DNA from: Yuukianura sp. NJ FZ-2021
Taxonomy: Eukaryota
Assembly (NCBI GenBank): GCA_046563655.1
Contig: CM102284.1
Coordinates: 7,006,001 to 7,070,000, forward strand
Reading direction: 5' to 3'
Length of the DNA stretch: 64,000 bases
A model generated the notes under the pieces. The model was not told where the DNA came from. It ran no database searches and saw nothing but the letters and a program-made list of their open reading frames with translations. Shown here in pieces: positions 1,028 through 56,187 of this stretch; position 1 is the stretch's first letter, and every line of letters begins with the position of its first letter. The position numbers and the translations under genes are program-made.

Positions 1028-1130
1028 TATGGAGGGATTTTAGTAGCAAAACTAATTAAAGTTTCCCCCGCCAATTAACGTTTCCCCAATTAAAAAATTT
1101 AACTTTCGCCAATTTATTAATTGGCGAAAA

Positions 1131-4624: not shown

Positions 4625-7600
4625 TTAACTTGATGAGCAATTTAAAATAGAAGAAGCAACTGCCACTCCATTGCTAACTCCTCTCCAACAATCCGACGAC
4701 GCAACGTCTCTGCTTTGATACTGTTTCCGTGCAAAGGCGAGGAACACTTCCTCCAACGTTGTTTCACTGACGCTGTAGTCATCAATAACGTCTGCATGGA
4801 TCTTCTTGCATTCCTCTACGATGTCAAATATCGTGTTCCAGGGCATCTCCGTATTTTGAATTTGATATTGGAGTACATTCTGTTAAAATTCAAATCAAAA
4901 GTGAGTTTTCACAATCAAAAGGCATGAAATTTTTCAAAATTCAAGGGTTTAGGTCAAAGGTCAACCTGATGCTCGTCCTTGAGTTCACAGGGATGCAGTT
5001 TCTGGAGAATATCTTTTTTGAGTGCATAGGCTGCGGGGTCATCTGACTGCATGTCAGTCTTCAAGCGCAAAACTAAGCTAAATCCTTTGGCAAATTTCCG
5101 CTTCAAATGCTGCACTCCGCCGAGACATTGCAGCTGACCGTTGACCATGATTCCAAGTCTGGAGCAGAGAGCTTCACATTCCTCCATACTGAAATTCAAC
5201 AAAAAAATAGTTTAAAAATTGTAAAAATTTGAAAACATTAAAATTAAACAGAGATTTTATTCTCAAGTTTTTTTACGACAATTTTAGTACATTTTAACTC
5301 GTAATTTTATTCCGAGCGGCACACAAGCTAGATTTTGAAGCTAGGAGTCAGTTTTAAACTTTTTGTTTTTTAGAACAAGGCAACGAACTTCTAAAAAAAA
5401 GGTGAAACTGCGCATTACGTTTTGCTTTTACTCTTGCTTTCTCCCATCCCATTGATTTTCCAGGAAAAGTTTGTAGTCAAAAGTTGAAAACGCAGTGATT
5501 TCCAGTGTATTGCGAGGAATACAAGAGAAAGTGAAGGTGCTAAGTGATCAATCTGGTTGGATTTTATAATGGCAGGGGGTCTTCAATGTCAATTGCCCCC
5601 CTACTTCTTCCCAATCCCTCCACCGCCCCCGCTTCCAGAAGCACTTCTAGCTGTCGAACTGAGTCTAGTGGCCAAACTAAAGTCAATTCCTATTCCGCCT
5701 CCAGTGAGCTACATCTACTCTCCGCTGGACTACGCATTTGAACCACATGCTGACTATGTTCGGAAGTACGCTCAATCCAGAAAGAAAATACTGTTTCTCG
5801 GAATGAATCCAGGGTAAGAAAATTCCAAAAATTAAAATTTTTAACTTTTTAAAAAAAAAAACATATTCTGAATTTAGGCCGTGGGGAATGAGTCAGACGG
5901 GCGTTCCATTTGGGGAAGTAAGTTTGGTAAAGAATTGGCTCAAGGTCCAAGGTCGTGTCGGGCGTCCCCAAGTGGAACATCCGAGCAGAGTCGTGGAAGG
6001 ATGGGGCTGTCCAAGGAGTGAGGTCAGTGGTCAGCGATTCTGGAGCTACTGGAAGGACCTATGTGGCGATCCAGAACTTTTGTTTCACTACGCTTATGTA
6101 CACAACTACTGTCCCTTGGCTTTTATGAAGGTAACTGAGCTCAACCTTTCAGGAATTTTCTCTAAAGCTTCGAAATTTTAGTGTTCCTGTCTAAAAATTT
6201 AAAAATTTCTAGGATTCCGGTAGAAACGTAACTCCGCCAGAACTGAAAGCAAAAGAACGGAATCAAATTTTCTCGGCCTGTGACGAAGCCCTTCTCAAAG
6301 TAATTCAGCTCCTGACACCCGAAATTGTCATCGGAGTTGGAAAATTTCCTCAACAGCGAACACAACTCGTTTTGCAAGGCGCTGGAATCACCAACGTCCG
6401 AGTCGAATCCATTCTCCATCCAAGTCCAGTCAATCCCACTGCTAACAAAGGCTGGAGAGACGTTATTCATCGTCAATTAGGCGAAATGGGTGTCCTGCCC
6501 TACTTTTGTCGCCAAACTGACGTGTCGTAAAGCGACATCGCTGCGCAGTGCTTTAGGCACAACGATTCGTCCCGGTGCTTGCGCTCCGAGGAACAACTCA
6601 GAGATTTAAAATGCTCACGAAGTACAAAGACAATTTCGAACGAACTTTGTTGTTGGCCAAACCACTTTTGCCAAATTGACGGCTAAACCCCGCCCCTTTT
6701 CTAAAAAAGAAATCGGAGTTTTTAGAAAACTAGCTCAGTAACGAACTATCATTAATGCTAACTAGGACGAAGACTATGCCACGGTCTTCCAGTAAAATTT
6801 TATGGTTCAAACCCAAACTGATGAGATTTGAATCTCTTGTCAGGCCTTTTTGTTTTGAAAATCCCATTGGTGGAAATATTGAAATTAGGGAGTTCATTGA
6901 TAAATGTTACTTAAAATATAACTATTAAGGAGCTTTAATAAATAAAAATATGGTACCTTACCTATGTGAAGTGAGTATGACACATTGACCAGTTCCCTTG
7001 AGCGACGAAATTACTTCCCAAAATTGACGTCGTGCCACTGGATCGACGCCACTCGTAGCTAAAAAAAAAGAATCATAATGCATAAAAATCTAACATTCGA
7101 ATCCACAGTTAATAGTTTCCCATATTCCCATTGAACTTTCAAAGAAAATTCTGAAATATGTTTACAACTAAAATTAGAAAAGTATTGTTTGCGTTTCTTA
7201 CGTTCATCGAGTAGAACAATGGGTGGATCACCAATCTTCATTTCAAAAGAAAAACATTAACTAAGTACTTAGTTTGAAGTTGTTAAAAAAATTGGAAATC
7301 TTACCATGGCCATTCCAACACTTAGCCGACGTCGCATTCCACCGCTGTATTTTTCTGATTTAACGTTTCCGGCTTTGAGCAATCCAAGTTTATTGAGCCA
7401 TTTGTTCACTTCTGCGTCACGTTTTGCCGTAGGGACTCCACGCAGATTTGCAAACAGATTCAACATTTCACGTCCAGTCAGTACACCAATTGTCGCGTCA
7501 AACTGTGGACAGTAGCCAATGTTTGACAGAAAGTCTTTCCGGTTCGACTGGAGTGTTCGAAGGCAACCGTAGGCATTCTACAAAGTACAAAAAAAGAGGA

Positions 7601-10600
7601 TCATATTTGAAAATAAGGTGCCCAAAATTCAATATTTCGGAATTGGTTTGAAAAGTTTTCAAAAATGCTCACCCCACTCGATGGCACTTCATCACCTGTA
7701 ATCATCTTGAACGTAGTGGTTTTCCCCGCTCTAACAATGAAAAGCAAACAACATTAGCAAATCCGATTCAGTGTAAGTATGAAATGTCAAAGGTCACTGA
7801 CCCGTTAACCCCAAGGAGCCCAAAACACTCTCCATGATGAACTCCAAAGTTGAGGTTGGCCACTGCAGCCAAATTTCCATAACTTTTGCTAAGATTTGTA
7901 ACAATGAATCCATCTTCTTCAGTTCTAGCTGTTTGCAAAAGGTCTTTGACTCGTGCTTTTTCTGCCAAAACGTCTTCATCTTCAACTGCATGATGCGTAA
8001 ATCGTCTGTTTGATGTTCGGCAAAACAGGCGCCAAATGCATCTTCTGATTCCGCCAAATTCAATCAAAACAAACACAATTTGGTAGAAGAGGCCCATCAC
8101 AAACATCCAGAATACTTCCTGCGGAATTCCAGGAAGATCAACTTTGGAGTCTTTGTCAAACTTGTAGGTCCAATTCATGTAACTCTCAGGAACAAAACAA
8201 CTTGGACCAAACACATTTACAAAATCGGCACAGTTATCTGAAAATTTCAAAAAATCATCCTCAGACGACTTTTCCATAAACTTTCAAACTTTTCTAAAAA
8301 TTACCGCAACATTGAAGCAGTTGTGGATCTACTTCCAACTCGGGGTTACAGAACAGTTGCTTGTCCTCTGGAGTAAGAACGGCACAACGACTGTTTTGTT
8401 TTGCAAGGGACGCAAACCGCATGATACTCGCTGATGCTCCGAATGTCGGCATGAGTCTGCCGACGTAATTGATTGGATTGGTGTCAAGGTCTTTTTGGAA
8501 ATTGTTTATAACAAAAATGATAATCGGCAGAAGCATTCCTAAAAAAACAACAAAATCAACGTATAAATATTCCAATTCTTGAAAAGTCCGAAATTTTGAG
8601 AACCTTAACACGAACTTACCAAAAATGATGTTGAGCACAGTTTTTACAGCAAATCCACCAGCTGGCGTTGAGACAATAAAGCTGAAGAAATAGGCAAAGG
8701 AAAGCGACGAGTAGCCCCAAACAACAAGAACCAGCAACAAAACAACTACGGGTCAAAGGTCAAAATTAAAGTCAACAAGGGTCATGTCAATTTTTTAATC
8801 ACTAAAGGTTAAGGTAGGACTTACGGAGTCCATTGTTTGAAGTATAGGCCGCATCCGTTTCGAAAATGGGGAAACATATGATGATGACGAGATTGGCGAG
8901 CATAATCAACATCAAATCCCACAGAAACGAAGTTCCCCAGAAGACGATGGCGTTGACCCCGGTCATCAGCTGAAGTTGCTTGGCCTGAAGGGTCAAAGGT
9001 CAAGATTAAAAAGAAATTCAATGCAGTAAAATTAGTAATTTTCCGAGGACAATAAATCTACTGACCTTGGACGTCCTTTCTTCAATTGGAAAAACAATGT
9101 AACTGGCAGCAAAGAGCGACAGACCAATGGGAACCAGGGCGCCAAAAATGATTGGCGAGAAGAACCACAGCGATAGATTGGGTTGAGCAGCTTCCAGAAC
9201 GTTGAACAGTTCGTTCTGCAGCGGGTAAACAGTGACTTCAATAGAAAAGTCATCCTGAGGAGCATGAGCCTTCAGCAAAGTGTTGGTCACAAGGTTAACG
9301 GAAAGTGGAGCGGCATGATGAGGAATGGACGAAAACAAGGCAGTGACCAAACTTGAATTGAAATCCGCTCCAACGATGTACTCTTGTCTAAATTTCCCCA
9401 AATCCACTGCCCCCAAGGTCACCAACTCGCCTTGAAGGTCTTCCTCAACTCGGGTCACTCTTTCCCCTATTTGTTTCTCGTAGATATCAGCAACACTCTG
9501 CAAAACAAGAAAAAATGTCAGAAAAGTAAGTTTTTAGTTTTCGAAATTTTAATTCTGAAATCAAAATTCCCGAAACTCACGTCATTTGTGGCATAAAATA
9601 AAGTTTGCGGTTGTTGATACGAGTCAAGTGTCATGCGAAGTGGTGGTGAATTTGTTCCTGGTTTGGACGTAGTTTGACTCAAGTAAATTGCACCGATAAC
9701 CATAAGCGGTGAAATTAAGAACTGCGTAAGGAGAAGTTTGCGCTTACGCAGAGCGTAAACCATTTTCTTTTTCAGCAGTGCAAAAATCTGGTTCTTGAGT
9801 AACGTTGACCCTTTGACCTTGTCATCTTCCAAATCTGAAAACCGAACGCTCTCAAAATTCAGAAAACCAAAAACAACATTTTTTTTAATCATTAAAAACT
9901 CACGTGTTCTGGAACCATTTCGATCACCGTTCATTGACGAAAACGAAGTGGTCCGAATTTCCTCTGCTTTGATCTGTTTGTCTTCAATTTCACTTAGCTC
10001 AGCAGTTGTACTCTCTTCAGCTTCACCAATTCTAAAATGTTCAATTTTCCAAGCTCTACAATTTTGATGTTTGGAAATTCCAAATTGAAATCATGTTTTC
10101 AAAAACGTACTTGATAAAGACTTCGTCCATTGTTGTCAGTGAAAGTCCAATGTTGATAATCCCCAGGCTTTCTTTTTCATTGTTGAGATCCAGGAACATG
10201 CTAGGAAATGTTGCAGTGGTGTCCTCTTCTGATGGAATTGCTATTGACAATTCCGCAGCATTCGGAGCATGATCCGTTTTTGGAAAAGCTTTCGGAAAAT
10301 GTTTTTGAACTTTGAGTAGAATTTGTTCATAGTCACTCAGCTTGGGGTCAACGGTCATCTTAAGGGTATAGCCCGTTCCGTAAAACTTTTTCAAAAACAT
10401 TGGAGTTCCGTAACACTCAATTCTTCCATGTGACATAATAGCGACACGATCTCCTAGAATGTCAGCCTCTTCCATGAAATGTGTCGTAAGAATAATTGTC
10501 CGCTTCCCACGCATTTCCTAATTTCGAAAACAAAATTTAAACATTTCGAAATTAAAAGGAAACAGTTCTACAACTTACGAGTAGCAAATCCCAGATCCCA

Positions 10601-13600
10601 CGGCGTGCTTCAGGGTCCATTCCTAAAAAAATAGTTTTTTGAAAATGTGATCACTGATTTTTTCGGGGGTATTTCAAAAATGTTCTGAAAAATGCGTAAT
10701 GTAGTACCTGAAGTTGGTTCATCAAGAATTACAACCTGAAAGCACAACAAAAGCAAGCCGAACTTACAAAACTGGATGTGTCATTATTTTCAAAAACATG
10801 CATTGGAAAACTGTTTTGACTGACCTTTGTGCCTCCGATTAGGGCCATTCCGAGACAAAGTTTCCGCTTCTGGCCTCCGGACAAACTCTGTGACATCACA
10901 TGCTTCTTTTCATTGAGCCGAAGTTTCTTGAGCAAATGTTTTGCCTCCTTAGTTGCAGCCGAACCTGCAAGGCCTTTGATCTAAAGTTTAAAAAAAATCA
11001 AAATTCAAAATTTCGAAAATGTGATTTTTGAATTTTTTTTTTGATTTCGTTATTACCCTGCCGAAAAATACAAGGTGCTCCATGACAGTGAGCTGGTCGA
11101 AGAGCATGTTGTGTTGCGGACAGAGACCAAGCGATTCCCGAGCTTCGTCCAACTGATGCTTGATATCGTACCCACTAAGATATGCATTTCCGGAAGTTGG
11201 CGGAAATAGACCTAGAAATTGTTTCGGTTGAGGTCAAGGTCGATGGTCAAAAGTTACTTGCAATGCCAAGGGTTAATTACCGGTCAACATTGACATTGCT
11301 GTTGTCTTCCCAGCACCATTGTGACCAAGAAGAGCAGTGATTTGCCCTTCGTACATCTTTATTGAAATGTCATTGACAGCAATTTTCTTCTTTCCAAATT
11401 TTTTGGTGAGTTTATGAATGACGACTCCAGGGTTGAGGGTATCTGGTTCCGTTTCGAATCCGGGTTTCGTCGATTCGTGAAGTGAGAAAATGGATTGTCG
11501 CCGAAACTCCACTTTTTTCTTTGGAGTGATCCAGGTTGAAGGCTAACCAAACAAAAAAAAATGGCACAGTTGAAAATGCTACTCGGAAAATTTCAAAATT
11601 CCGGTGAAAAGCCGTTACCTTCAAGAGAAAGTACCAAGGGCGCCGGATTCCGTACTTTGTGGGCATAATTGCTTCAATGTATAAGGTCAACATGGAGTAC
11701 ACAATAACATCGACAATGAACATGCAGCAAATGTTGCCGACAGATAAACCGTCAACGGCACTCAACGGTTCCCAAAAATTACTCCACCGTGCTCCAGCGG
11801 CTAAAATCAAACAAAAAGTCAACAACTTTCTCTTAAAAATTTTAAACCCAAAAAATTAGTAAAAACTGACGTTCGTACCTCTTCCTTCAAAACCACACAT
11901 GACCTAAGACAGCAAAAAGAGAAAACATATTGACATGAGTTCGGCGAAGGCTAAGCTTAACATAACGTGACCTTGAATCATTCTACACAAGAATCTTAGT
12001 TTTAGATTACTGACCTTGATTATCCAGTGAAGACCCATGTTCGGTATGAGTGAAGACAACAACTTGCTTTTCAGTGAAAGTGTCATGTAATTTCTCTCGA
12101 GCGGTATCAGTGGGGCAAAATACGAAACCAACCAAATCACCACTCCAAACGTTGTAGCCAACGTAGCTAAAAAAAGAAAATAAAATAAAAACTGAAAAAC
12201 TTTTTGTTAAAATTTTGAATTTCCAATTTCAATTTCGAAATCTTTCATATCATAACGGCAACCAATCTGCAAACTAAGGCCTGAGTTTATCATGGCGAAT
12301 TTTGCAAACTTTTTAACTGACGCTGAAGATCGTCAATCATTTGGACTAAACCAAAAAATGCTCAAAAAAAATTAAAAATTTTGTTGAAATCTTACGTCTT
12401 TCCGAGAACGTTGAGATGAAGAAGCAGAAGGAAGTTGCGGCCATAACGAACAGGAAGAGAGCCACCCACCAGACCAGTGGATTGCCAAATCCAATAACTG
12501 GACCAGTTTTTTCATTGAAGGGATAAAATAGCAGGAAGATCACAATGGAAATACTAAAACACAAAACCAGTAGAGAGTTCATCATCCACCCCAGCCAGTG
12601 CATCCAATTTGGCAAACCCATCAGTTTCATCAGTTCCTAAAAATCAACCAAAGATTAAAGAAAAGACAAAAAACAATACAATTTCAAATTTTGTAAGAAC
12701 AAGGTATGACGAAGAACTAAAAGCTCACACTGGGAAAAGAATCGAAGAGAGAAAAAAATTTGAAGTGACGTTTAAGGTTTTCAAAAAATCAAATTCTAAA
12801 CGCCGCATAAAGAAATTTTGAAGATAAGTTTGAAAATTAGGCATTTGGTGACAGCTGTATTGAATAGTCAAGATAAGAAAAGACTTTAGGCTTTAATCGG
12901 TTAATTAACTCAAGTTTTAGTCAATTAATTGAATAAATTCAGATTGAATTAAAATTAAACTTACCTTGATTCCACTTTCTCTTTCTGAAACGACATTTCG
13001 GATGGTCGAAGGCACAATGAAAATGAATCCAAGCACAAGAAACAGCGGGAGGAAAATGAAGTAGAACTGAGAAAAATCTTTCACTTCAATGTACGGTGGA
13101 TACGGAAAAACTTGAGTTTGAATCTGAAAATTTACAAATTTCAAAATTTCAGCAACACATTTTTAGAAAAAAAAAACAAGTAAATTTTGCTCCAACCTCT
13201 TCCGATGCTGGAATCCCAGTCATCATTTCAATTAGAACTCGATCCAGCAAGATTTGAACTCCAATGTGACCTCCTAACGTGTACTTGGCAGCATTTTCTA
13301 AAAACAAAGCAAAAAATAAGTTATAAAATTTTACGCCATCAAACTTTTTCTTGAAGTTTTACAACTGATTTTTCAAAATGTCAAGTTTCCGCTCCGTTTT
13401 TCAGAAACTTACCCAATTCAGGTCCTGGAAATTGAAACCACTGAAAAATATTTTCAGTCAGGATGTCATATGCTGCTGGACGAAGTCTATAGCGGACTTT
13501 GTACCCCTTGGGGAACGACCCATTGAGTGCTTTAGCAAGCAGGTCAGGGTCATTCGGGAATTCAAAAACAACAGCCGACTTGAGCTTTGGATCATCATAA

Positions 13601-15115
13601 GCAGATTTCAAATCAGCAACTTCAGCAAATTCTTCCAGTTTCCGTTCCGTTTCAAAACCTTTCGTACCTAAAAAATTAAAAATCACAGTAAATAAAATGT
13701 AATGTTTCTTTGAAATCTCAAAATCGAAGTTGATTTTTTCAAGTTTTTTGGACTTACCGAATTCACTTTGGGGTAGTTTCTCCTTGAAGCGTCTAATAAT
13801 TTCATCCGTGAGATTATTTGCAGGCGCATAGGCAAAAACACAGTCGTTACATAGAATATTTATTGAAGTGTAGTCAAATAACTCCTGTAGGAAAAACAAT
13901 AATTGAATAAAACCAAGGGCTTCAATTTATGCAATTTGAGCAATTAATTCAAACTTTAAGATCACAAAGCTCCAAGATCTCAATTAACTAGATTCCAAGG
14001 ACATTGCACATAAACAACTTCCTCTTCAATTCTGTTGTTTTTCAAGTTCAACTTCATAAACAAGGTGAAGAAAAGAAATATCAGTCAGTTCGACTGCGAT
14101 AAAGTTTAAAATTGATTTCGCTTGAACTGACACAAGTCCTATTAATTCAAACTTATTTGTTAAAGTTGAAAGTAAATTTGAAAAGGAGAATCAGAATCGA
14201 AAAAACCAACTTTTTGGAACTTCTGCGAAGCTATAATTTAAAGTTCCATTCAAAAAAGTAATTTCTATCAGATTCTTGTTGGCAACTTAGTTATTCGAAT
14301 TGGCAAAAACTAGATTTACGAGTATTTCATATTATGCACACGTACTATGTCATGTAAGCCACTTTCAGAAATTTATGGATTACTGGATTCCCCAAATTGC
14401 ACAACGTGAAACATGGTTTTCGCTGAATTTTGAAATATGGAAATTTGATTTTAAAACGGGAACAACCTTCAGTAAGAAACGTTAAAGAATCTTAAGAAGA
14501 ATTTCGAAACTGGGGATGATTCAGCCAAAAAAAAACGCTAAAATATTGCTATTTCATCCGTTTAAAACAAGGTGCCTCGACACGAAAAATTAATTTTGTT
14601 TAACTTTTCGGGGAAGGTATCTTGGTTTAAAAAAAAAAGTTAAATGAAACGATAACATAATTTCAACTTTTGGTCAAACTTCGATCTTGAAACAGAAATA
14701 TTTCTTACACCAAAATTGAAAAATGTTGCAAAAAGTTTTGAAATAGTTACGCTGGATTTTCTCAGGGAAATGTTTTTTTTTTTAGAGATCATAATAAAAA
14801 TCTTTACCGAAATCTTAAAGCTCCTTTTGTTCTTCTTTTGTTGAAAAATCTACAATTTTGTGTACAAATTTCGAAATTTCGTACCTGTTCCGTAGTTGGT
14901 GGGAACATGGAGATTCGATCAACGACCTTGTAGGAACCTTCATCTAGTTGAGTACGTAAGAAAGCTAAAATCCCCGCCAGAACTGTTGGCAAAATGATTT
15001 CCAGCGTAGTTACCACATAATGTCTTTTTCTAAACAAAACGTTTTTCCAAACGAGTAAATACAGGCGTCGGAAGAGGTGCTTGAGCCTCTCCTTTCTTGT
15101 TAGAGATGATCCCAT
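4625..15115 (-). CDS. ABC transporter subfamily A (ABCA3-like lipid transporter), about 29 coding exons
   Basis: N-terminus LLVWKNVLFRKRH. NBD1 GHNGAGKTT (~11300), LSGGQKRKL, VVILDEPTSGMDP, ILTTHFMEEADILGDR. NBD2 GLLGVNGAGKTT, YSGGMRRRLS, LLDEPTSGVDP, ILTSHSMEECEALC. C-terminal SVSETTLEEVFL. GT-AG introns; start 15115, stop 4625. Confidence 0.95.
5569..6530 (+). CDS. SMUG1: Single-strand selective monofunctional uracil-DNA glycosylase, nested antisense in ABCA intron 5189-6961
   Basis: Exons 5569-5813, 5878-6130, 6213-6530 splice in frame. Motifs [49 protein letters not shown] and HPSP are characteristic of the SMUG1 family. Confidence 0.95.
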
Positions 15116-18734: not shown

Positions 18735-18752
18735 TCAGTCAGTCAGTCAGTT
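18735..18752 (+). promoter_or_regulatory. Possible arthropod initiator (TCAGTT) for the SEC14-like gene
   Basis: (TCAG)4TT ending in TCAGTT about 55 nt upstream of ATG 18805. Motif match only. Confidence 0.35.
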
Positions 18753-18804
18753 ACTAAGAGACTTTGACTTCACTGCGCGTAGAAACCTACGCGGCAACAT
18801 CATC

Positions 18805-21746: not shown

Positions 21747-24700
21747 CTAAATTTCTTTGAGGTACTTGAGTGGGACGTGACCCTGTTTGTTCTCTCCGTT
21801 CCGTATCATCACCATTCCATTGGACTCTTCGCCCATTTGGATCACAACCTAAGTTAAAAACATAAGTTATGTAAAGTTATGCTAAGGTTGACCTTTGACC
21901 TCGTACCTGGTCCCTTAGAAGCTTGAGTCCACTGTCAGCACCGTCCGTCACTTGCAGATTGTGCGTTACCTGAAGCACCTTCTCTCCTGATTGGAGTTTC
22001 GTCACGTATGTAGAGGGAAAGTAACCTTGACGACCGAGGCACTTGCCTTGCCACCAATCCGGGTCAGTCGTGTCTGTCACCGTGACCTTATACCCCGCCC
22101 TAAGGTGAAAGTCATTAAGTTAGGTGAGAGCACGCCATTGTTTCGAAAAGTTTGTTTCGAATGCGAATTGTTTCGAAAAATAATTCTTTCGAAACAGAAA
22201 TTGTTTAGGGTTTAAACCTTAAGATTAGGTTAATTTTGATTACATTGGTTAGGCTAGTTTAAGTTTAGGTTAATTACATTATTTTAGATTTAAGTTAGGT
22301 ACATAAAAATGAGCGTTTCGAAACAATTATTTTTCGAAACAATTCAATTCGAAACATTTGTATTCGAAGCAATGGCATGACACCGATGACCTTACTTGAG
22401 GTCCATTTCATCAGGATGTCTCGCCTTGAACATGTAGAGTACCACGTAGAGATTTGTTGGCAGGAGTCGATGGGGTTTCTACGTTCAAACAGAACAAAGT
22501 TTCAGCATTTAGAACAACCGTTTACAAGGAAAAGTAGAATGGAAAGTGCCTGGAGAGGGAACTTAGGTTACAGGCTGACCTAGGTCTGCCAGAGACTTCA
22601 AAGGGCCTTTGTGTGACAAGGAGTGACAGTAAACTGGCTTACGGGGGAAGGACATGGTGAAGTACTGGCAGAACTCAGGCTCTTGTCATTTTCATCCGGA
22701 AGTTCTACTGAGCTCATCCGAACGTTCCGAGCACTCAGCAGTGCTCTCCGATTGTGAACAGGGCTGGAAGGGGCTGAAAAACATTAAAAAAGAATGTCAG
22801 TTTTTACTAAAACTTTTACATTTCGTAATTTTAATAGAGGCAGAGAAAGTTCGAAAATTTAGAAATTTTTCATTAGCAAGAACACCAACGATCAAGTTTT
22901 TCACAAAAGATTGAAAATTAGCACTGAAATTGTAACAATCAACATCAAAAAAGTTTGGCAAGCTAAGAAGAAAGCAGCAAATAGTCAAAATCGGGGAAAT
23001 GCAAAGCAGCGACAGTCAAGCCAACGACTTTCTAAAAAACACTGCGGCGGCAGCACACTGACCACATTTTGGTATTTTTAAAACGTTTTTTAAAGTTAGA
23101 CTTGAGTACCAAAGTGATTGACAAATTGAGCAGTGGTGGGCGGAGGAACAAAGCGGAGGAGGGCACCGTCAATGGACCTGCGATTGCCCAAAGCGGCACT
23201 CGTCCTCCCCAGTAGAATGTCTCTCCAGTTGTAGTCTGCAAAAGACCCAAGACAAGGTCACCCCGTGTCAATTTCGGGTCAAAGGTCAACTATTGCTACA
23301 CCTTTAGGTCAAAGGGCAACTAGCTCAGACTAGAGAAGGAAAAGCTACGAAGAAAGGAAGAGAAAGTCAAAATCAAAATCTGAGAGAGAATCATGCTGGA
23401 ACGAAAGGAAACGATTTTGGAAAGCAAGAGAGAGATAGGACAGAGAAATAGGAGCCAAAATTTGAATTTTAGCAGAGAAAATGACTCCGAGTGACCTTTG
23501 ACCTTGTTTTTATCGTTCATTTTGATATTGCTCACTTCCAGTAGGATTTTGAAAACTTTCTCTCACTGGAAATATTGAAACTAAAAGTTTCTGATGCTTC
23601 ATTTCTGTGCAATGCTAAATTTTGCAAATTGTATGAGTTGGGTTGAGGTCAAAGGTCAAAGGTCACTTGAGGTCATTGTGAATAGAAGGTAAATCCGTTA
23701 CATTGACTGTGGGAGGTTGATTGACTTCCGTGGGCATATCGCCTTCTGTTGGCATGTTCTGTTGACTCGGGAGAGTCCAGTGAAAAGCTTTTCATCCTTA
23801 GATCCAACTTCCGCCGTCTAGGACTGTGCGGGGCTACAAAGGAGGTCAAAGTTCAAAAAACACTAGAGTAAAAAACTAATGTAAAAATGACTGTAAAACA
23901 CTCTGTTATTTAATCAGAGGTCAAAGGGCAGAGAGGCAGAGAGGTCAACACACTCAAACAAGTGTTAATTAGCTTCTCCAAAGTGTTTAATTAGTCATGC
24001 ACTTCTCAAAATTTGCCTAACAAAAAGGGTTAAATTAGCATTTGCGTTTCTACTCAAAATTTTTAGACCTGTTTGTACTTAGCAAGGAAATTTTACAGCA
24101 AACAACTTGTCTCGAGGAAATTTTCGGCAAACAATTTCCTTCAAGAAAATTTTTCAACAAAAATTTTGTCTTTGGAAAACTTTTCAGCATAAATTTTGTC
24201 CCTGGCAAACTTTTCAGCAAAAATTTTTTGTTGGGAAAACTTTTCAGCAAAAATTTTGTTGCAGGAAAACGTTTCAGCATAATTTTGTTAAGTGCTGCAT
24301 TGTCCTTAGACTTTCGTGTGTTAGTTGCTTTCTATGAGGTTTACATTTGTTAAAATTAAAAATTTTGAAAATTGTAAAAACATTTTTGAAAAAGTGTTTC
24401 GAACAAGTACTGCGGGCAGTACTTTGTGTAGAGGGTAGTGAGATGGCCCTTGGCGGGGGCAACAGAACCAGAGACTGTCCATCAGCATCTGCTGACACGC
24501 TCTTCTTGCTTACGTAACTATCTCTCCGTTGTCCTAGGTAATATGAGGTCAGAGGTCAAAACGTGCTTCAATTACATTATTATATATTATATAACAAGTT
24601 ATTTCGGTATAATAACTCATTATTTAACAATCCTAATCTTCCCTTGGCCAAAACCCTCCAGAGATCCCATCAAAACCAAAAGTTAATTTCCTAGAAATCA

Positions 24701-27700
24701 TCTCCAAATTTAGACAAATTGCCTCAGCCACTTTCTAATCCAAATGACAGCAAACGTCAAAATTTTGCTCTACTTGCTCCGTTTTGCTCTATTTCTGAGA
24801 AGCTTTTTGCCTAGATCGACTAAGATTGATGTCGGTAATGACTGGGATTATGTCAATAAGTCTAATTCTTTGATGGATCTCTGGCGCTGGATGGCTTACC
24901 GGAAGACGAAGGATGGAATGAGGGAGGTTGAGTCAGCGCTGCGGTGCTACCTGATTGATTCCCAATTATATTGACAGTAGGATTGGATCTTCGGTTGCTA
25001 GATGAAGGGAGGCTGAGATCTTGTGTGGACTGGAGTGTCTGAGATGATCCGAGAAAGCCACTTCCACTCCCACTCCCGCTGCTACTTCCCCCGCCCCCAC
25101 CTCCAGGTTTCTTGAGATCTGTAGCCTGTTTGAGCACTTGGTAAATCAGGTCAGGCTCCTCACTCCCCCCTGGGCATAATCCAAAGGCCAAAACACAATT
25201 AAAACTTCCAAAGTACCCCCCTCCCCTTCAAAAGTACCCCCGGTCGTTCTACATTGTCAAGGGCCCTTGGGACATGACCGCTGCCAGAGCCCTTGGAAGT
25301 TGCAGCTTTGCATGAGTGCTGGACCGCGCGGTATGTTTTGTCAAAAACTTTTAGCCGAAAACGTTTCTGGCAACATGCAACTATAAACGTTTTCGGTGAC
25401 GCGTAGGCCCGACTTTAAAATTTTTTGAACTTTTGAAAATTTTCGCCAAAATGACGCGTCTTTTTTTGAAATTTTGGCAATTCGCGCCTTGAAACTTACG
25501 ATTTTGGTTAGACCGAGCAGCACTGCCACCACCACCGTCTGCTTCTGCAAGTTGAGTCAGCCGAGTCTCCAGTTCAGACGTTGACCTCTGTCTCCGCAGA
25601 AGACGTGTCTTGGGCTGACATTTCTCAACTCTGTCTTGACAGTCCAAGTGAATGTTCATTTTACACATGCGACATCGAATCCCCTGTCTCGTATGTCCTG
25701 TGTTACACGCAAAAGATATCCCTTAAGTGAGCTCTGGAATTCTAGGACTTTTGCATCTAAAAAATTCAGGAGCCCTTGACCTTTTCAGGCTCTTGTTTCT
25801 AGTTTTAGCAATTCCACTGATGGAGGGAGTAACTATGCCTACAGACTCCTGCTACAGACTAAGTAATGAATAAGTGAAAGTTCTGGAAGAGACGGTTTAT
25901 TACCTCTGAGGATCTTGGAGCATATGTCACAGGGTGTAATTTTCTTGTAAGTGTACTCCTGGAACACAGAAAAGGAAAAAGAATGGCTGTTTAAATTGGT
26001 TCTGGAGAGCCGTTGCCATACTTTTTGTGTTTTGGGTTATGTTTTTTGTGTTACCTGGAAGATGTGATTCTCAAAGATCTGGAACTCCTTGCCATTGTTA
26101 TCTTTCTCCTTGGCACTTTTCCTGGAAAGTGAAACCAAAAGTGAAAGTTCTGAGACTGTAAGTTCTGCTCTGCCCAATTACAGTTTCCATTGAGACACAA
26201 TTAGGGAACCGCGAAGGCTTAATTTCGCAAGGATCCTCCAGGAAATCCAGCAGTTACGTAAACTACTGGAGAAGAAACTGGAGAAAATGGACAAGCGCTG
26301 GACATAGTCATGTGACCGTAAAACTTTTTCCTAAAATGCCAAATTGTTAGCAGTGACATTGCTTAGTGCTTGCTTGAATTTAAAAGCGACAGTTTAAGCT
26401 ATAAGCTGGCTGCTGGAAAAAGTGAAATATGACCAAAAAGAGAAAAGTTTTCACTATAGTCACGGTGTTACAGCAAAAGTGTCAACCGCAATTAAGTCGA
26501 ATCTTTTTAGCAGAAACGACTCTGCCATTATTGTTTACAAAAATTCTGTTGACGTTTTTGCTGTTGATGAAATTTTCTCAGGGTCAGATGTAAGCCTTTG
26601 TGCAAAGGAGAATGAACTTTCTCCTTCTGCGAAGAAAGCCGTTTATGGATAACATCAATTAGAAACTTTGTTTGGTCTTCAGAATAAATAGACGAAGTTG
26701 GAGCTAACAATTGCGGTAAACCACAAAAGTATTTTCACTTCTTTTTTTTTTCGAAGTAGAAAATTGAGTAGCCGCAAAAGAATCAATATCCATTACAAAT
26801 CCAAACAAAAGTCCACAAGCAGACAGAGAAAGTAGCAGGACTTTGCTTCAGAATAAAACTAGAAGACGATTGAAAGCAATTTGAGTTGCTACTGGAATCA
26901 GTTCTTTTAGAAGAAAGCACAAGAAATCCGCCTACTTCAAAAGCACTTTACTTTGTGCCCTTCTCAAAGTTTATAATAAGGTTCTTAAGTGTGAACAAAA
27001 CTTTCTCCTCATCATTTTTACAAAAGGAAACTTTCCTTTTCTGCACTTTTAGCAGGGAAATTTACAAGAACAAACTTTTCAAAGTTTCCAAAAAAGTTCA
27101 AAAAAGCTTCCAAAGTACAAGCTCAAAGAGAGAATAATTTGAGAACCCGGGATGCCAAAAAAGCGTGTCCAAAATTAGAAATTCAAGTAACTTTCCCCTT
27201 AGAGAAAAAATGTATAAATTTTGTTTGATTCTAGCAATTTCAATTTTCTGAAATGGCTATTAAAAGGTGTTCAAAGAAATTTTTTCGTAACTTTTTTAAA
27301 ATTGGGAAGCTCTACCAGACTTCCTGAAATTGTACAAAAGAAAATTCAGAGAAAGTTCGTGTTTTGCGGTTTTGCAAATTGGAAAAACCTAAAAATAACT
27401 ACAACAATGCTTATTAGCCAGAAATTATTGAATCAAAACCCAAAAATAGGACAAAATTGATTGTTTTTCCTTTCCACTTTTGTTGTTTGATTTTCAAAAA
27501 TGTTTTCAAAATCAAAAAGTGTACCTCATCATCATAATGGCAGTGACGGCGAGGAACATTTGATTTTGTCCCTTAGACTTCGACTCACCAAGCAGCCAAA
27601 ATTAGTTAAACAAGAAACACAAAATTAAAATATTAATAAAAATATGTTATAAATATTAATATTCAAAATGTTAGCAGCAAAGAGTACTGAAAGAGAAATA

Positions 27701-30700: not shown

Positions 30701-33700
30701 TGCAGACATGAGACACGAATCGAACATTTCCTGGGTCTGGCACTTCACTCAGCAAGGTCCTTGCTAATTCAACTGTAGTTCCCTAACCACGTGCTTTTAG
30801 TTTACAGAATTTCATATTACTTTCCAAATCGCTTGCATGCAGACGTAAGATGTAAAACGAGGAGTCTAACTTGGTAGCACGTAGAATGTGAAAAGACAAA
30901 ATGTAAACCTTGACATTTCCCAAGGTACACAAAACAAAAATTCGTCATGCAGCTTGCGACCTGGAAAAACTGAAACTTGAAGATGCAAACAAGGACACCC
31001 CAGAGCTCAAACGGTTACATTTTTTGAAAAATTCCTTTTTACGGCTACTTTCTCCCCATGCTTTCATGTCACCTCAGTTGGGATGTAAACTTAAAAAGAG
31101 AAGGTGTCAAATGTGCATACAATGTAACACGGTAAGTAATTGAGTAATGTAGTTCCAATGTCAAATGGAAAAAAACTTAAGCTTAGCTTGAATGAAATTC
31201 GGAAAGTGAAAGCCGGCCTAACATTTCGTACTTTTAGTTACGGAGATTTTCATTTTGGAGAAAAAAACGTTGTGGCAGGGCATATGGGTTCTTTTGAGCA
31301 AGAAAAACCAATCCAGAAACATGAATCATACGTAACATGTCAGATTTCATAAAAGTGTCAAATTCTACTTTCACAAGACGATATTAGGTGACAAGTTTCG
31401 TAAAAAAAAAAGCAAAACCCAAAAAGAAAAAAAGGAAACCAGAAACGAAAATCCTGGAAACCAAAATCATTCATCATTTACTCCCGGAAAGCTCAAAAAA
31501 GTAGGAGAAAGCTACGAGCCAGCAAAGGTCACGCCATGACCTATCGACCTCATACAACAAAATGCTGTCTCTATGTTTGAGTTTATTATATATTAATTTA
31601 TAGTTTATTATGTTAACTTTTCAAAAAAATTCAAAATTTGGCTTTTCCTTTGTCCAATTTTTTTTTCTCAGAACTTCAATTTTCTCTTTCTCCTAACTTA
31701 TTCTTTTTTCTCTTAGGAAAAACTGAAAAAAAATCCCTTTTGACAAAATCTAAGCCTAAAAAATTGAAAGTGGCCAGAAAAACTTACATTGGAAAGAAGA
31801 TTTTCCGTTTTAGTCAAGTGCGTCTCGAAGCTTTCACGATGTGTAAAAATTTTACGTGATTGGATCTTCCGACAGAAAGTCTTCTCCAAAAGTTGCCGTG
31901 CTACCTGGATATCCAGTTGTACCGTAGAAGAAAACCCATAAAGAAAGAGAATACAATTTCAACAAGAGAAAGAGAATATCAATATTTCAAAGGCACCTGA
32001 AAGCCAGCAACGCTTTCCGTTCTACTTTCACTTTTTCCACACACACAACATTGTACAGAGCCTTTTTTCAAAAAGTTCTAGGAAAACCAAGTTTCTCTTT
32101 TGTAAATAACTTTAAAACAACAAAGTTTCCTTTGAAAGAAAGAGAAACATGGTGACCTCCCATAGCTCAGCGTTTTTCCACTTTATAATTCCCAAATGAG
32201 GTCACTTCGTTTACTAAAAACACACGCACACATCCTCCGTTTAGGAAAAACAAAAACCAAGGTTTCCCGTGTTTTGGAAACGATTCTTTAAGTAACTACG
32301 TGAAGTGAAGCCTAAAAGTGGAAGTGAAAGTGGAGAAAGTAGGGGCTCAATAAACAATGTTTTTTATCTGGTTCGTTCCAGTTTTTCAGTAGTGGCAGTT
32401 TGAGCAGCTCTACTTTGTTATTTAGCTGGAGCTACTTTTTTGGTTGAGAAAAACCTTAAACGGCTCACGTCTCGCAACCCGTCTATCCTCATCATCATCA
32501 ACGCTCGTTTCGAACAAATATTTATTTGAGAAAAACGCTCCGCAACAGCTGGTTTTGCTTCTCAAGACACAAAATTTGGCAAGGATTTACTACTGCCCTG
32601 CTTTTTTTGTGTAGTGTGCACCTCCATTTTACTTAAAGTCTAACCTTTGACCTTTTACCTGGCGAGAGAGAGATCCAGCCACGTCGGAATGAGCTTGAGA
32701 ATCAATTTCAACCTCCTGCAAAAGCGTTTCCCACACTTGAAAAAGTGTACTGCTGCATGGAGGCCTAAAAATGGAAGAGAAAAACACAATTTAAAACAAT
32801 TTAAAAACCAAAATTTTTAGCAGAAGAAGAGAAAAAACCTTTTAAATAGAATTCCACTAAAATCTACAATGTTAAAAACTAGTCTGGTTAATACTAACGC
32901 TGAAACTGGAAGTTTCTGTGCGAATTATGTTATAAACACTCGTTTCAAAATTGAGCGATTTCAGCGTTTTAGTCAATTCAAACTCCTGCCACTCAAGTAA
33001 ATGAACCTGTTCCATTAGCCCATGTGATTTATAGCTCACTTATTTAAGATTTATAGCTTTTTTTAAATTTGAAATTTTGAAAAAAAAGTTCAAAAAAATT
33101 TCTACTAAAATTTTCATAGTCATTTCTTTTACTGTATTTTGCTTGTTCGATGCCGTTTTTCCTAAACAATTTTAGTCCAATTTTTGAAATTTTAGATATT
33201 TTCTATCAGTTAAGGTCTATCGTGTGTATCCGTTAATTGAAGGGTGTTCAAATTATTTTTTTTAAAACAAAATTGCACAATTGTGTGTTGCAATCGGTTC
33301 GGTCAATAAGCGATTGACGTAGTAGATTAAGATTTACGAAGTGTATGAAAAATGAGACAAGAGAGATCATTATATTTTTCCATTTTTTCCTCATTTCTCC
33401 TGTGTTAGAGAAAGCAAAACTTTCCCTCTAAGCCGTTACCAATCAAACCCCGCCTAAAAATAATCCATAACTCATTTCCCCCGATTTTTTCCTGTCAAAA
33501 AGTGGCCTTTATCAAAATCTGACCTTTATCAACAAAGCCTGTCCGAAGTTTCCCGGTTGGACAACTCTCGACTCCATTAAGCTTAGGCTTATCGACTTAA
33601 TAAATGTCACTTTGACGAGAGGGAGTTCATATTCTCCGATTCGGTTTCTTTTGAGAACTTATCGGGTGAGATATGCCTTTCTCAGTTTCTGCCTTCCGAA

Positions 33701-39700: not shown

Positions 39701-41755
39701 CCTTTTTTTATTCTTTTCAAGAAAAAATCGAAACCGATTTCACCAAAATTCAAATTCAGGAGAAAGTGAAATACATATAAAAAAGCACAAAAAAAAGTTA
39801 TTAAAAGGAATTTTCACTGAATCAAGTCAAAAAAGAGAAAGTTTTTTAAGCAGAAAATCGAACACATTATCATTTCTTCTTCTTCTTCATCATCATCATC
39901 GATCACGAAAGCAGAAGGAGAGAAAAATCGAAATTTTCTCCCTCCAGACTTTCAGAATCTTAAATCAATTTTTTTCATCTTTTCTATTAATTTTTTTTCC
40001 TTTCGAAAACTTCATCATTAAAAACGTCCTTTTCTAATCTCCGAACTTTCCCTGCTCGTCTCAAAGGAAAAAAAAAAGTTTTGTGTCACCTCTTTAACCC
40101 TATTTTTTAACTCCCGCTTGCTTTCTATATTCTAGAACTAACTTAATTAACGACATCTGAGGCGTAAAATTGTTAGATTATGTTCTAGAACCGTTTTTCA
40201 AAAAAGTCTATTTTGAAATTTGAAAAAAGAAGGTCCTGTCATCATAAAAAGAGGTGTGTGTTTTAGAACAAGAATTAGTGCTCGTACCATCTGCTTTGCC
40301 AATGTCTTTTCTAAACCTATCATCTTCACGAGCCCATCCTAATTTAGCATTCTGCGAAAGCTATGCTTAGGTAGCACGCTCGTACTTTGAATTTCTAATT
40401 TTCAAACAAGACGACGCTGGAACCAGCGCTTTTGTCGAAATTGTATTTTCTATTATTCCCTAGAGACTAATAATTAGTATTGTGATTTTAGACAGGTTGA
40501 AGTTGGACTGGAAAATAAGAGAGATTGAATTTCTAACTCAATTAGAATGTCATTGTTCTTCGTTGTCTAGATTGGCTTTAGACCCCTCACCCCACCGCCC
40601 CCATTTTCTAAAAGTTTAGAACACAGCTAGTTTTCTAGAAAATGAGAACCCCGCGGAGAATTTTCAATTCGATTGAACAATCGAAGCGTTTTCCGATTGT
40701 CCAATTTCATTTTGAATCTAATTTTACACAGGAATTCAATCAAGTACCAAACCCACTCTGTATCGAATTTCTCTTAGAATTTGTCATTTTGCGCCGGAAT
40801 TGGGTCAAGTCCAATAGTACTAAAAACGAAAGGTCAAAGGTCAAATTTTGTTACCTATTCGAATTAGTTTGAAAGTGAGGGCATTGTGAGCTTTGAGAGA
40901 TTCGTTGAGATTTGGATGGAGAAGGTCACGGAGTGAAAGTCCTTCGACGAGTGTCGACAGTCCAGTGACACTTGAGTCTTTTGAGCTCATCTTCTTACTT
41001 TTCCAACTAAAAGTTCTGGACAGAGAGCGAGGACTTGGACTTTGGCTTGACCTGATTGGTCCACTTAAGTCCTTCAGACACTTCCGATTGGTCGACGGTG
41101 GTTTGTTAAGTCTACGAAAAGAATTAAACTCGTCATTTTCCGACTCTTCTTCAACGATACGTTCAAAAGGCGACTCAAACGTAAAACGCTTGAGGACACT
41201 TCGGGGAGAAAGTTGCGGTTTTGGAGATGTTGTAGGACTTTTGTCGGCAAATGAACCTTCGCTGGCGGCTGATTCTGAAAATACACGCTGTGAATTCTTC
41301 TTAAACCGTAGACCTCTCTGTGGTCGTTTCGGTGGAGGCGCTGAAATTTGAATTCGCGGCAGTCGTCTGGTGGCCCAAGAGTCCTCGTCGTCACCCGCTT
41401 GTCTCTGTGCGTTCCAATCACTTTCACATGTCGCGATTGAATTCCTTTGTTTTTCAAATCCGAGTTGTCTTGAGCTCGACTCTTTTCTGGGCTGAGCAAG
41501 ACTCTGACTTTGTTTTGGAACTTCGAAATTTTGAAAATGTTGTTCCTGTTCCAAAAATTCTTCTTCTTGAGAGTCCTGACCACCAAGAGAGTCTTCAGAG
41601 GTCAAAGGTTGATTGGATTTGACAAAGATTGAAGGGCCTGGAGGGAGGATGGGGGATGATGGAGTTGATGCCTTGGATGGAACTGCTGTGTACTCACTAG
41701 AGAGGAGGATTTCTATGATTTCATCTGCAGGGAAGATGATGTACATAGATGACAT
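21747..41755 (-). CDS. Stacl: Stac-like adaptor: F-BAR-like/coiled-coil region, C1 (cysteine-rich) domain and tandem SH3 domains
   Basis: Exons include 40855-41755, 35022-35130 (QQLSTLHDQHSAELQLLVENFRKRN), 32659-32764 (WETLLQEVEIDSQAH), 31788-31904, 30459-30623 (YYDAHNAYVQQL), ~28771-28926, ~28208-28318, ~27928-28133. C1: HIFQEYTYKKITPCDIC...GIRCRMCKMNIHLDC (~25500-26120). SH3: YVVLYMFKARHPDEMDL...DPDWWQGKCLGRQGYFPSTYV. Second SH3 ends VPLKYLKEI* at 21747. The first exon assignment rests on a phase match. Confidence 0.85.
22131..22379. mobile_element. MITE-like element with ~65-bp imperfect TIRs inside a Stac-like SH3 intron
   Basis: cacgccattgtttcgaaaag...tttcgaaac versus gtttcgaaac...ttcgaagcaatggcatg. 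Arms are built of ttcgaa subrepeats; the centre is rich in taggtt. No clear TSD. Confidence 0.6.
24086..24290. repeat. Degenerate 15/30-bp minisatellite in a Stac-like intron
   Basis: Units like aaattttgtc..tggaaaacttttcagca repeated about 5-6 times. Confidence 0.8.
29100..29320. repeat. Degenerate short repeat (gacgtcaaa-type) in a Stac-like intron
   Basis: Many cgtcaaa/gacgtcaaa occurrences at irregular spacing. Confidence 0.55.
37830..38020. repeat. Degenerate tandem repeat (ctgttctaaatc-type)
   Basis: ctgttctaa recurs at roughly 30-bp spacing in intronic sequence. Confidence 0.55.
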
Positions 41756-49453: not shown

Positions 49454-50175
49454 AACATAACCTGGAAAAGGACCAATAAAAAACGGGCATAAAAGAAATC
49501 ATGAAATTCTAGTCTGTAAAATTTCGAAATAAAAGTTACCCCAAAATTTCTCCATTTCTCCTGTACCAAAAAAAAAAATTGGAGAAAGCAGCGCCTCACT
49601 TTCACTTTCAGAATTCCAATTATTACATAAATTTCATTTATTGAAGTTAATTAACCCACTTATGATTGTAAACCGCACAAATTCAAAATTAGGTTATAAA
49701 GGGAGACATCTTAATTTTTTCGAAATTTTTAAGGCTGTTTTAAAAATTTCCGAATCCTGGTGATTTCAAAGCGCTTTTTAAAAAGTGATTTGTAACAACC
49801 AGCATAACCCCTTTGTTGAAATCTGTAATTAATTATAAATTATGTTATTAATTAGCACATTAAAACTGTAACTAATTAATTAATTATGCCATGGTTGGAG
49901 GGTTGAGACAAAAAATTCACACGGAGTGAACGGTTTAAGTGTTTTTAAGATTCTAATGTTACACTTTCTCCTTACTTTTGAAATTGAAACATTTTTGAAA
50001 TCTGTGCATTGCTAACTTTCTAAATCTAAAATTTCAATATCTGTCCTGGTTCTTTCCATATCCTTTTCACTATCTTACCGGAGTATGTTTTTTCTAGAGG
50101 ATTTAGACGATTTCTGGATAAATGTAAATTTATATCATAAGAATGAGGACCGATGATGTCAATTGTTTCCTAGTT

Positions 50176-54354: not shown

Positions 54355-55239
54355 TTTCGGTACGAAGTCAAGAATACTGGGATGACCCTGGGTTGAAAAT
54401 GAAATCACTTCTCCAAAAGTCCCAATGACAATCTGTACCTGTCACGCGACCTGTCAGTGATAAAATGGATTAAAAATCAACAAGATTGTTAAAATAAGAA
54501 TTCTATCTCGAATTCGGAAACAACTTACGATTCAAGATTACCGTAGTCAGTCGATATCCAAGACGAAATTCCTGTAGGTAAAGGTTGCAATGTCACCCCT
54601 TATCAAATTCGGCAGTGAAAGAAAACTGTACTTTGTATTTAAAAAAACAGAGAGATTCGAATGGACGACGGACTGAGACTGAGATGAGAGGGTGGGTGTT
54701 TCTGAGGAGGATTAACTTTAATCTTCTTCAACTTTGTCCATTTAGATTTAGGTAGGGGAGTTAATTAGAACACTCAGCACTTTAAGATTAATAATTAAGA
54801 TGCGTCCAGCTGAAGTTGATCTGTCATCGGTAATGCTGAAATTGTGTTCATTGCCCCCCGCCCCCAGTCTCAAACCATATGCTTTCTTTCTCTGAGGTTT
54901 TTCTTACGCAGAGTCTGAGCAGTAGAGAGCGCCTGATGGATATAAACGATTGCTTTTTGCATATATTCATCATAGTACGTGCTAAGTGTCAAAAGTAATT
55001 AATTCTTCTTGATTAAGCGATAACGACCGGCATAACGGGAGTATGAATAGCTTGGTTAGCACTTTAGCACCATTTTATTGAGGCGATGCCCATATATGAA
55101 CGAGAACCGAATTTAAATTGTAATGTTAAAAAAACGTAGTAATAAAATAAATATGGCTGCCATATTCGTTGAGCAGAATGCGATGGATAGGGAGAATATG
55201 GTGACATTAAGATCTTGAATTGGAGATGACATTGGGAGG

Positions 55240-56187
55240 TCAAAGGTCAGAGTCCTTGATGAATCGATTCCCCTCGGAGTTCTTTCCGACGTACTTGAAC
55301 TTGCGACGACCTTGACGTCCTTTCCGACGTTGCGGCGGATCAGCAGTTCCAGTTTGTTGCTCCGCATTTGGATCTGAGTTGTTCTGAGTCAGCGCAGAAC
55401 TATTCCGAATTGTGGCCTCAATTGGAACGGATGCTGGAAGGGGAGTATAGCTCGGAACGACCTTGACGTTTCCATAACACAGCTTTTTGGATTCAGCTAG
55501 TTCCTGATTAGATACGATTCGGTGATCCAGGAAACGAAGTCTGGAAAGATGGAATAGAATATGGCAACGATAGGCAGCGTACTCCGTTTCTTGGACGTTT
55601 TCATCTGAGAGCTGATCTGGACACACCGGGTTCCCCAGAAGTGACAAGTAGCGTAGATTAGGGGTCTTTGCACCCAAATCGGCTAGCAGAGCTGTCAAGT
55701 TAGAGATCTGGGGAAAAATCGATACCGAATGTCAACAGTGTAAATTGATTGTTTACTTTTAGGGAATTTATATTGCCATTACCCGGTTCTTATTGAGTGA
55801 CAGTGTATTTAATTTGGGAAATTGGGCCCGAAGTTCCAGACGAATTAATTGATTATTATCCAGAATCAATTCCTCCAACGTTCCTGCACATCCTTCCAGT
55901 CCGCGAACTTTGTTCAGCAAATTGAATGACAGATTGATACTTCGTATGAACGAGCCATACCGAATTGCATTAAATTCTGTCAAATCCCTTCCCACGACAC
56001 AAATCTGCAAATAACAAACAGGCCATATGTCAATTACAACAATTAATCGTTCGATTGAATGATGAGTTGGTTTTACTTCACTACAGTTTGACCCTGGCTC
56101 TTCTCCAGAGTTTCCAGCTAACAAGCTTGTCATCTTCCGTCCCAGTTTTTCGCGAAGTGTGACCACAAGTGACCTGGTCGTATTCAT
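55240..56187 (-). CDS. LRMDA: Leucine-rich melanocyte differentiation-associated protein homologue (C10orf11/OCA7)
   Basis: Exons 56077-56187, 55783-56004, 55240-55707. LRRs (INLSFNLL, LEELILDNNQL, LNTLSLNKNRI, LRYLSLLGNPVCP), LRR cap YR...LRFLD, and family-typical C-terminus YVGKNSEGNRFIKDSDL. The start could be 56133. Confidence 0.85.

Follow-up and report, generated by a model that had tools for sequence, protein, structure and literature searches.

A DR1-type direct repeat in the genome of Yuukianura sp.: abundance, grammar and strand sorting at predicted splice acceptors

Background

Direct repeats of AGGTCA with a spacer of one nucleotide (DR1) are textbook nuclear receptor elements. 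Here we investigate a word of this type, RGGTCAAAGGTCA, in the genome of Yuukianura sp. NJ FZ-2021, beginning with the window, a stretch of 64,000 nucleotides (assembly GCA_046563655.1, contig CM102284.1, positions 7,006,001 to 7,070,000). The closest described system is the DR1 of RXR and COUP-TF2 homodimers (Fang et al. 2012, PMC3384313), which shares with our motif the AGGTCAxAGGTCA geometry and the virtual absence of the HNF4-specific variant CAAAGTCCA. Those sites are defined by human protein binding, whereas ours are defined by sequence alone. Also unlike them, the motif here runs to about 6,000 perfect copies over 99 Mb and is found within exons as well as short introns.

DR1-type sites occur in similar mass, and are likewise partly repeat-borne, among the HNF4alpha sites spread by Alu elements (Bolotin et al. 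2011, PMC3252374). The Alu sites are low-affinity variants, whereas the sites here are perfect and about three quarters of those sampled lie outside sequence with at least three copies. A further parallel is the presence of COUP-TFII and TR4 on GGGTCA variant telomere repeats; receptors of the NR2C/F group bind A/GGGTCA direct repeats there in a non-promoter, structural role with a link to DNA repair (PMC6785246). Those are telomeric arrays of human cancer cells, in contrast to the dispersed pairs in arthropod gene bodies described here. Bacterial DNA uptake sequences also combine one exact word, a genome-wide excess, both strands and placement inside coding sequence; unlike them, the present word has a two-half-site grammar, and there is no known uptake or drive mechanism here. 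Finally, introns of the U2 type carry a branch point and a polypyrimidine tract. Copies of our motif on the acceptor side likewise place the adenosine of TGAC between -15 and -26, with pyrimidines after it. Unlike branch points, this concerns about a fifth of the intronic sites, and the opposite strand and the exons carry the word just as often.

A sequence-only reading of the window had proposed that the motif is hugely over-represented and often close to splice sites in both orientations. It was suggested to be an orientation-independent, DNA-level mark of exon-intron borders, linked to receptors such as HNF4, RXR/USP or COUP-TF/Seven-up, or the footprint of an intron-associated repeat. A full-text search, with most subscription journals and supplements outside its range, found no published account of such density or of genome-wide or intron-end enrichment. 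Similar TGACCTTTGACC arrays may also be present in fish introns and mollusc repeats, which would lower the lineage specificity. What is new here are the genome-wide counts, a splice-site test matched for length and composition, the sorting of orientation, and tests against HNF4 and slippage.

Results and discussion

Abundance of the motif

The abundance of the motif is real. In 98.7 Mb on 22 contigs the exact word GGTCAAAGGTCA is present 6,075 times, compared with 78 times for its reversed control word, and the copies are split 3058:3017 between the strands. The window holds 19 sites that are perfect or carry a single mismatch, where 100 shuffles predict 0.17 +/- 0.45, and exact search recovered all ten of the perfect RGGTCAAAGGTCA copies on which the claim of over-representation had been based. 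Restriction to certain chromosomes was considered and rejected: the count per 100 kb in unselected blocks varies between 0 and 10, yet in subsamples all 8 large contigs carry the motif. The excess on contig C5 is largely one array of ~15 sites near 4.06-4.13 Mb.

Position, orientation and part of the grammar were investigated in a sample of 989 kb, composed of 475 kb around the first 200 listed C1 sites (selected) and 514 kb of blocks from C2-C6 that were not selected for the motif, among them the window with its flanking sequence. Genes were modelled with a self-trained gene finder with a strand-symmetric non-coding model, which generated 984 introns with a median of about 90 nt. Splice sites outside the aligned junctions of an ABCA gene in the window are predictions, and repeats were masked by similarity within this 1% sample only. 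Of the 233 exact sites in the sample, predicted introns hold 89 and coding exons 46; the other 98 fall outside both.

Grammar of the motif

The identification as DR1 is supported by the spacing of half-sites. In the 514 kb of unselected sequence, direct repeats at spacing 1 dominate, with 36 against 0-7 at spacing 0 and at spacings of 2-15. The spacer is looser than the half-sites: genome-wide, 1,516 copies have a non-A spacer and 681 have a mismatch at the single inner position compared (controls 100 and 101, respectively), and locally there are 12 substitutions of the spacer against 0-6 at positions 3-13. An overlapping inverted half-site lies downstream, at the spacing of an inverted repeat with one intervening nucleotide (IR1), in 11 of 149 non-repeat sites. 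Of the receptors that had been named as possible readers, HNF4 is the least likely. In HNF4 peaks CAAAGTCCA and CAAAGGTCA are about equally frequent, according to Fang et al. (2012, PMC3384313). Here the HNF4-specific variant RGGTCAAAGTCCA is rare, at 45 copies genome-wide (control 5) against the 6,075 of the core 12-mer.

The motif also occurs within coding sequence. GGTCA is read by the transcript at 34 coding-exon sites, across all three frames, and TGACC at 7, in the sole frame that is free of stops. Compared with synonymous shuffling of the unselected genes, coding half-sites are in excess on either strand (AGGTCA 53 vs 23.9; TGACCT 52 vs 29.6).

Position relative to exons

Outside repeats in the unselected sequence, DR1 sites are about fourfold denser in the 40 nt bordering predicted exons than beyond them: 22.8 per 100 kb there, compared with 1.7-7.5 at greater distances (9 vs 8 sites, P=3e-4). 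Half-sites beside exons are 4.3-fold enriched over 83 permuted control words, falling to 1.4-2.0-fold beyond 80 nt. Since both the density and the excess over control words are found there, we regard the exon-adjacent enrichment as real, with the caveat that distal DNA may be diluted by unmasked repeats.

Closeness to splice sites is a different matter. Of 140 intronic sites that were perfect or had a single mismatch, 108 were kept after 23 in repeats had been removed and 9 tandem neighbours collapsed. When intron length is matched, 41 of these 108 lie within 15 nt of an intron end where 31.4 are expected, a 1.3-fold excess (P=0.014), and in introns of up to 130 nt the preference is not significant (34/63 vs 29.0, P=0.12). 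In the window itself 7 of 14 intronic sites come within 15 nt of a donor or acceptor of the gene model, against 2.95 expected from intron lengths (P=0.002), an effect that exceeds that of the larger sample because the window was picked for the pattern. The closeness noted by the sequence-only reading thus persists in part, and is mostly an ordinary consequence of short introns and of overlap with splicing signals.

Orientation relative to the transcript

Introns contain the motif on both strands, with 60 sites reading TGACC and 48 reading GGTCA in the transcript (P=0.29), which supports a two-strand, DNA-level character. Mid-intron sites, 63 of the 108, have no strand bias (29:34), and donor-side sites are split 9:13. 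At acceptors the split is 22 TGACC to 1 GGTCA. The use of both orientations therefore applies to introns overall and to donors, and not to acceptors; an orientation-independent border mark is not supported, given this bias and the control words that match most of the end preference. The strict transcript-strand bias expected of an RNA splicing element is absent, as bias is found only within 17 nt of acceptors.

Sites that read TGACC are concentrated there (22/60 lie no more than 17 nt from an acceptor, where 9.5 would be expected, P=5e-5; 22/61 vs 9.3 with a 5-nt acceptor model). Composition-matched control words reproduce most of the sorting. Branch-point-like (TRAY) pyrimidine control words without a half-site are enriched 1.91-fold at acceptors, compared with 2.3-fold for the motif, while purine-rich control words are present at 0.44-0.48-fold and the GGTCA-reading motif at 0.15-fold. 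At donors the purine control words are enriched 1.4-fold and the motif 1.8-fold, and of the 13 donor-side GGTCA sites, 9 have their first base no farther than 6 nt from the donor. In predicted introns the TGACCT adenosine has its peak at -15 to -26, coinciding with that of branch-like YTAAY, by 4.0-fold in unselected and 3.3-fold in selected introns. For other TGAC words the peak is 1.6-1.9-fold. Because the TGACCT peak is the sharper, it is plausible that some acceptor-side copies double as branch point. There is no sign of compensation, in that another YTAAY is not depleted from introns with the motif (3/18 vs 79/600, P=0.72).

What might generate and keep the motif

We give slightly better than an even chance to RGGTCAAAGGTCA being a receptor-type word of double-stranded DNA that was independently gained, lies beside exons and was strand-sorted by splicing. 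It is shaped like a dimeric nuclear receptor site of RXR/USP, COUP-TF/Seven-up or TR2/4 (Hr78) type, and it would have arisen and persisted independently at thousands of positions, unevenly between genes. It would build up in tolerant gene-body sequence, mostly introns of 60-110 nt and intron ends in a compact genome, and the concentration beside exons may arise because short introns and intron ends are tolerant and probably accessible. Splicing constraints would afterwards sort its orientation. The TGACC strand would suit acceptors because it reads as branch point plus pyrimidine tract, while the purine- and AG-rich GGTCA strand would be barred from acceptors and suit donors, where GTAAG supplies part of a half-site. 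The sequence itself demonstrates how abundant the motif is, its occurrence on both strands, its grammar, and its placement and orientation on predicted introns; binding by a protein, selection, the identity of the reader and any function are what we infer from these patterns.

In favour of the receptor-type grammar, GGGTCA is unevenly distributed between the halves, at 1,257 copies in the 5' half and 261 in the 3' half genome-wide with repeat copies included, and 26 vs 0 among non-repeat sites. RXR and COUP-TF2 homodimers tolerate GGGTCA in this same 5'-half direction (Fang et al. 2012, PMC3384313). Several results weigh against the explanation. The polarity here is limited to the first base, which is the motif edge; elsewhere there are 21 mismatches in the 5' half and 23 in the 3' half. 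In longer introns 25 of 45 sites lie within 60-75 nt of the ends (11.7 expected), and composition does not explain this. Exon enrichment is not peculiar to the half-sites, as the control hexamers ACTGGA and TCCAGT are enriched 1.5- and 2.1-fold and among all 4096 hexamers AGGTCA ranks 9 and TGACCT 120. The host genes have no evident shared function, with Pfam matches for 41 of 85 exons, and site density has no relation to CpG or to GC content at third codon positions in 53 unselected and 50 selected genes. Nor is the receptor family expanded, with 38 zf-C4 matches in the genome. In 211 pairs of repeats or paralogues the motif has diverged by 8.3% and its flanks by 18.5%. The apparent twofold conservation was rejected as an artefact of conditioning on a perfect query; that choice alone predicts about 9% divergence under neutrality, which leaves nothing to indicate added conservation in these pairs, and the result counts against selection, at least in repeats.

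Is the motif then the product of a neutral process? Molecular drive or local copying, in which a half-site hotspot is spread by slippage, template switching, repair or conversion and the motif accumulates in the oldest and least turned-over non-coding DNA, beside exons, is unlikely in our view. It would fit the repeat pairs and the lack of common function among host genes, as well as the excess of perfect copies over near-copies (6,075 vs 681 with inner-position mismatches), the pairing of half-sites above chance at several spacings, and the triple arrays, which are common (among 100 of 177 entries of a subsample biased towards them, from which no rates were taken). A 7-bp duplication, however, requires the preceding or following base to equal the spacer. 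Among 118 non-repeat sites, 25 agree with neither register (about 5% expected, P=5e-9), 29% fitting neither would be expected if the flanks were independent, and the flanks are not anti-correlated (odds ratio 1.6); slippage is therefore at most a minority source. A further 26 sites have unequal halves. Template switching for the IR1 arrangement is unsupported, as the arms extend in 14 of 22 sites and flank composition predicts about 13, and at period 7 GGTCA is unmatched by other 5-mers (42-fold vs 2.1-fold for all words). It is possible that the drive is itself caused by a bound protein. Rather more doubtful is a role in splicing, whether with TGACCTTTGACC as branch point plus pyrimidine tract or with a DNA-bound receptor aiding co-transcriptional exon definition. 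The acceptor-side excess of TGACC, the 3-4-fold peak of the TGACCT adenosine in the branch-point zone and the density within 40 nt of exons speak for it. Against it, only 52 of the 233 exact sites have a predicted exon boundary no more than 15 nt away, introns of at most 130 nt lack a significant end preference, most intronic sites are mid-intron and strand-unbiased, and motif introns do not want for another YTAAY. An RNA element would also leave the reverse strand, the exons and the repeats unexplained.

A more specific proposal is that one of the USP/Seven-up/Hr78 receptors has taken on the role of organising gene bodies across the genome, by binding to linker DNA beside the exons of some genes. 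Its site would have become part of branch points, pyrimidine tracts, donor sites and codons, and a single word would act both as binding site in DNA and as splice signal; this we consider improbable. We rate lowest the footprint of an intron-associated repeat or introner family, the option left by the sequence-only reading. It draws on the 53 of 233 exact sites in sequence with at least three copies in the sample and on two flank clusters of 34 and 17 sites, one of which carries a GTCY microsatellite. Yet 149 of the 233 sites match no other site's flank, and 0 of these 149 non-repeat sites match a repeat-borne flank at 30 or more of 50 bases (best mean 19.9 vs 19.5 for the null). Genome searches with window positions 21849-24899 and 7731-9065 returned, among the candidates scored (40 of 54 for 21849-24899), only a site-free repeat at about 22124-22398, so the searched window sites lie outside repeats. 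Repeat-borne sites avoid splice sites (4/53 within 15 nt), and the host introns are mutually unlike and placed in conserved coding regions; shared flanks or inverted ends were not found among them.

Response elements are not usually distributed at such density inside introns and coding exons, and a perfect receptor-type site at ~60 copies/Mb in both is unlike their usual distribution. If a receptor does bind, this compact genome could test whether the sequences of introns and codons are shaped by transcription factor binding and whether such binding ties chromatin to splicing, and introns of 60-90 nt simplify minigene tests. If nothing binds, an unknown sequence-specific drive would be at work in an animal genome.

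Sites and host genes in the window

The sites of the window and their two host genes are collected in Table 1. Sites are unevenly distributed between genes (overdispersion 3.0): 10 of the 19 are in the SH3-domain gene and 5 in the ABCA gene, and the AP-3 delta and WH1-domain genes have none.

Table 1. DR1 sites and host genes of the window, with the transcript reading where it was noted
Feature	Position	Strand	Context
Perfect DR1	4951..4963	+	2 nt inside donor 4965, 86-nt intron, minus-strand ABCA gene; transcript reads TGACC
One-mismatch DR1	7784..7796	+	5 nt from donor, 71-nt ABCA intron; junction within conserved nucleotide-binding domain (ABCA3 alignment)
Perfect DR1	8750..8762	+	4 nt from acceptor 8746, 79-nt ABCA intron; reads TGACC, first A within branch-point zone
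Perfect DR1	8990..9002	+	5 nt from acceptor 8985, 81-nt ABCA intron; reads TGACC
One-mismatch DR1	10345..10357	+	Within ABCA coding exon
Perfect DR1	21889..21901	-	5 nt from predicted donor 21906, 58-nt intron, minus-strand SH3-domain gene; reads GGTCA
Cluster of 7 sites	23276..23930		Members 23276, 23306, 23492, 23646, 23653, 23843, 23918 (perfect: 23276, 23492, 23646, 23653); predicted 1175-nt intron 23236-24410, sites 40 to 555 nt from its ends
G-spacer DR1	24546..24558	+	12 nt from predicted acceptor 24534; reads TGACC
One-mismatch DR1	29018..29030	+	Predicted 471-nt intron, 92 nt from acceptor
Two overlapping one-mismatch DR1	32641..32660	-	Overlap candidate donor 32658; exon absent from gene model
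Perfect DR1	40831..40843	+	11 nt from predicted donor 40854; reads TGACC
Perfect DR1	55237..55249	+	Overlaps end of last predicted exon of minus-strand gene and provides its predicted TGA stop
ABCA3-like transporter (host gene 1)	4625..15115	-	About 28 predicted exons
SH3-domain gene (host gene 2)	21747..30727	-	17 predicted exons

The one-mismatch variants listed by the sequence-only reading are mostly right, with the exception of 41598, which is really at 41599, has two mismatches and belongs to a predicted coding exon. That list was also incomplete, having overlooked 7784, 10345 and 32648. The splice sites it named differ in their support. Donor 4965 and acceptor 8985 are at ungapped junctions in an alignment to a springtail ABCA3 protein with 42-52% identity. 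Acceptor 8746 is also ungapped there, in a weakly conserved part. Donors 21906 and 40854 match gene-model predictions only. Donor 32658 is outside predicted genes, although its score of 6.0 is good, an acceptor at 32765 scores 6.4 and one frame is open. Acceptor 23834 is a weak candidate (score 2.7) that the gene model does not call; there is a possible unpredicted exon near 23703-23833, inside the intron that holds the seven-site cluster. The cluster itself has no repeat match elsewhere in the genome among the candidates scored in the search with 21849-24899.

For the ABCA exon used as query, Folsomia and Orchesella provide the closest homologues, which marks the genome as springtail-like. 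Of nine ABCA junctions aligned with springtail homologues, 8 are ungapped at the junction and 1 ran into a gap. Within an intron near the 3' end of this gene, on the opposite strand, is a three-exon uracil-DNA-glycosylase (UDG) gene, SMUG1-like, at 5569-6530 (+; Pfam UDG E=0.0014); the last ABCA exons at 4625-5187 prolong the ABCA3 alignment. The SH3-domain gene is presumably Stac-like. An intron of it holds the repeat at about 22124-22398, a ~250-nt element with inverted ends that resembles a miniature inverted-repeat transposable element and has at least 30 related genomic copies. A long foldback at 1009-3068 has ~1-kb arms with 91-99% complementarity, separated by a centre of 81 nt, and close to its ends are tandem repeats of 30 nt.

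Receptor genes and other observations

The genome encodes DNA-binding domains that we take to be of USP, Svp, Hr78, HNF4, EcR, ERR and Hr38 type. One predicted gene (G000:C1:1918800-1923248, 5' end cut off) combines a C2H2 zinc-finger array with five tandem degenerate C4 fingers of nuclear receptor type, with four zf-C4 matches; the part that was predicted lacks a ligand-binding domain. Because its recognition boxes are non-canonical, the protein does not suggest itself as an AGGTCA reader. A DR1-like site lies in the short intron that splits the DNA-binding domain of a tailless-type receptor (G000:C5:10181700-10182090).

A repeat at G000:C1 about 632100-633290 contains a GTCY microsatellite and internal units with arrays of DR1 and of direct repeats without a spacer (DR0); it resembles what we take to be DINE-1/HINE elements. 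In non-repeat unselected DNA of C2-C6 other words are over-represented as well, and ACTTTCTC, AGTGAAAG and AACCTAAC are present at three to four times Markov expectation.

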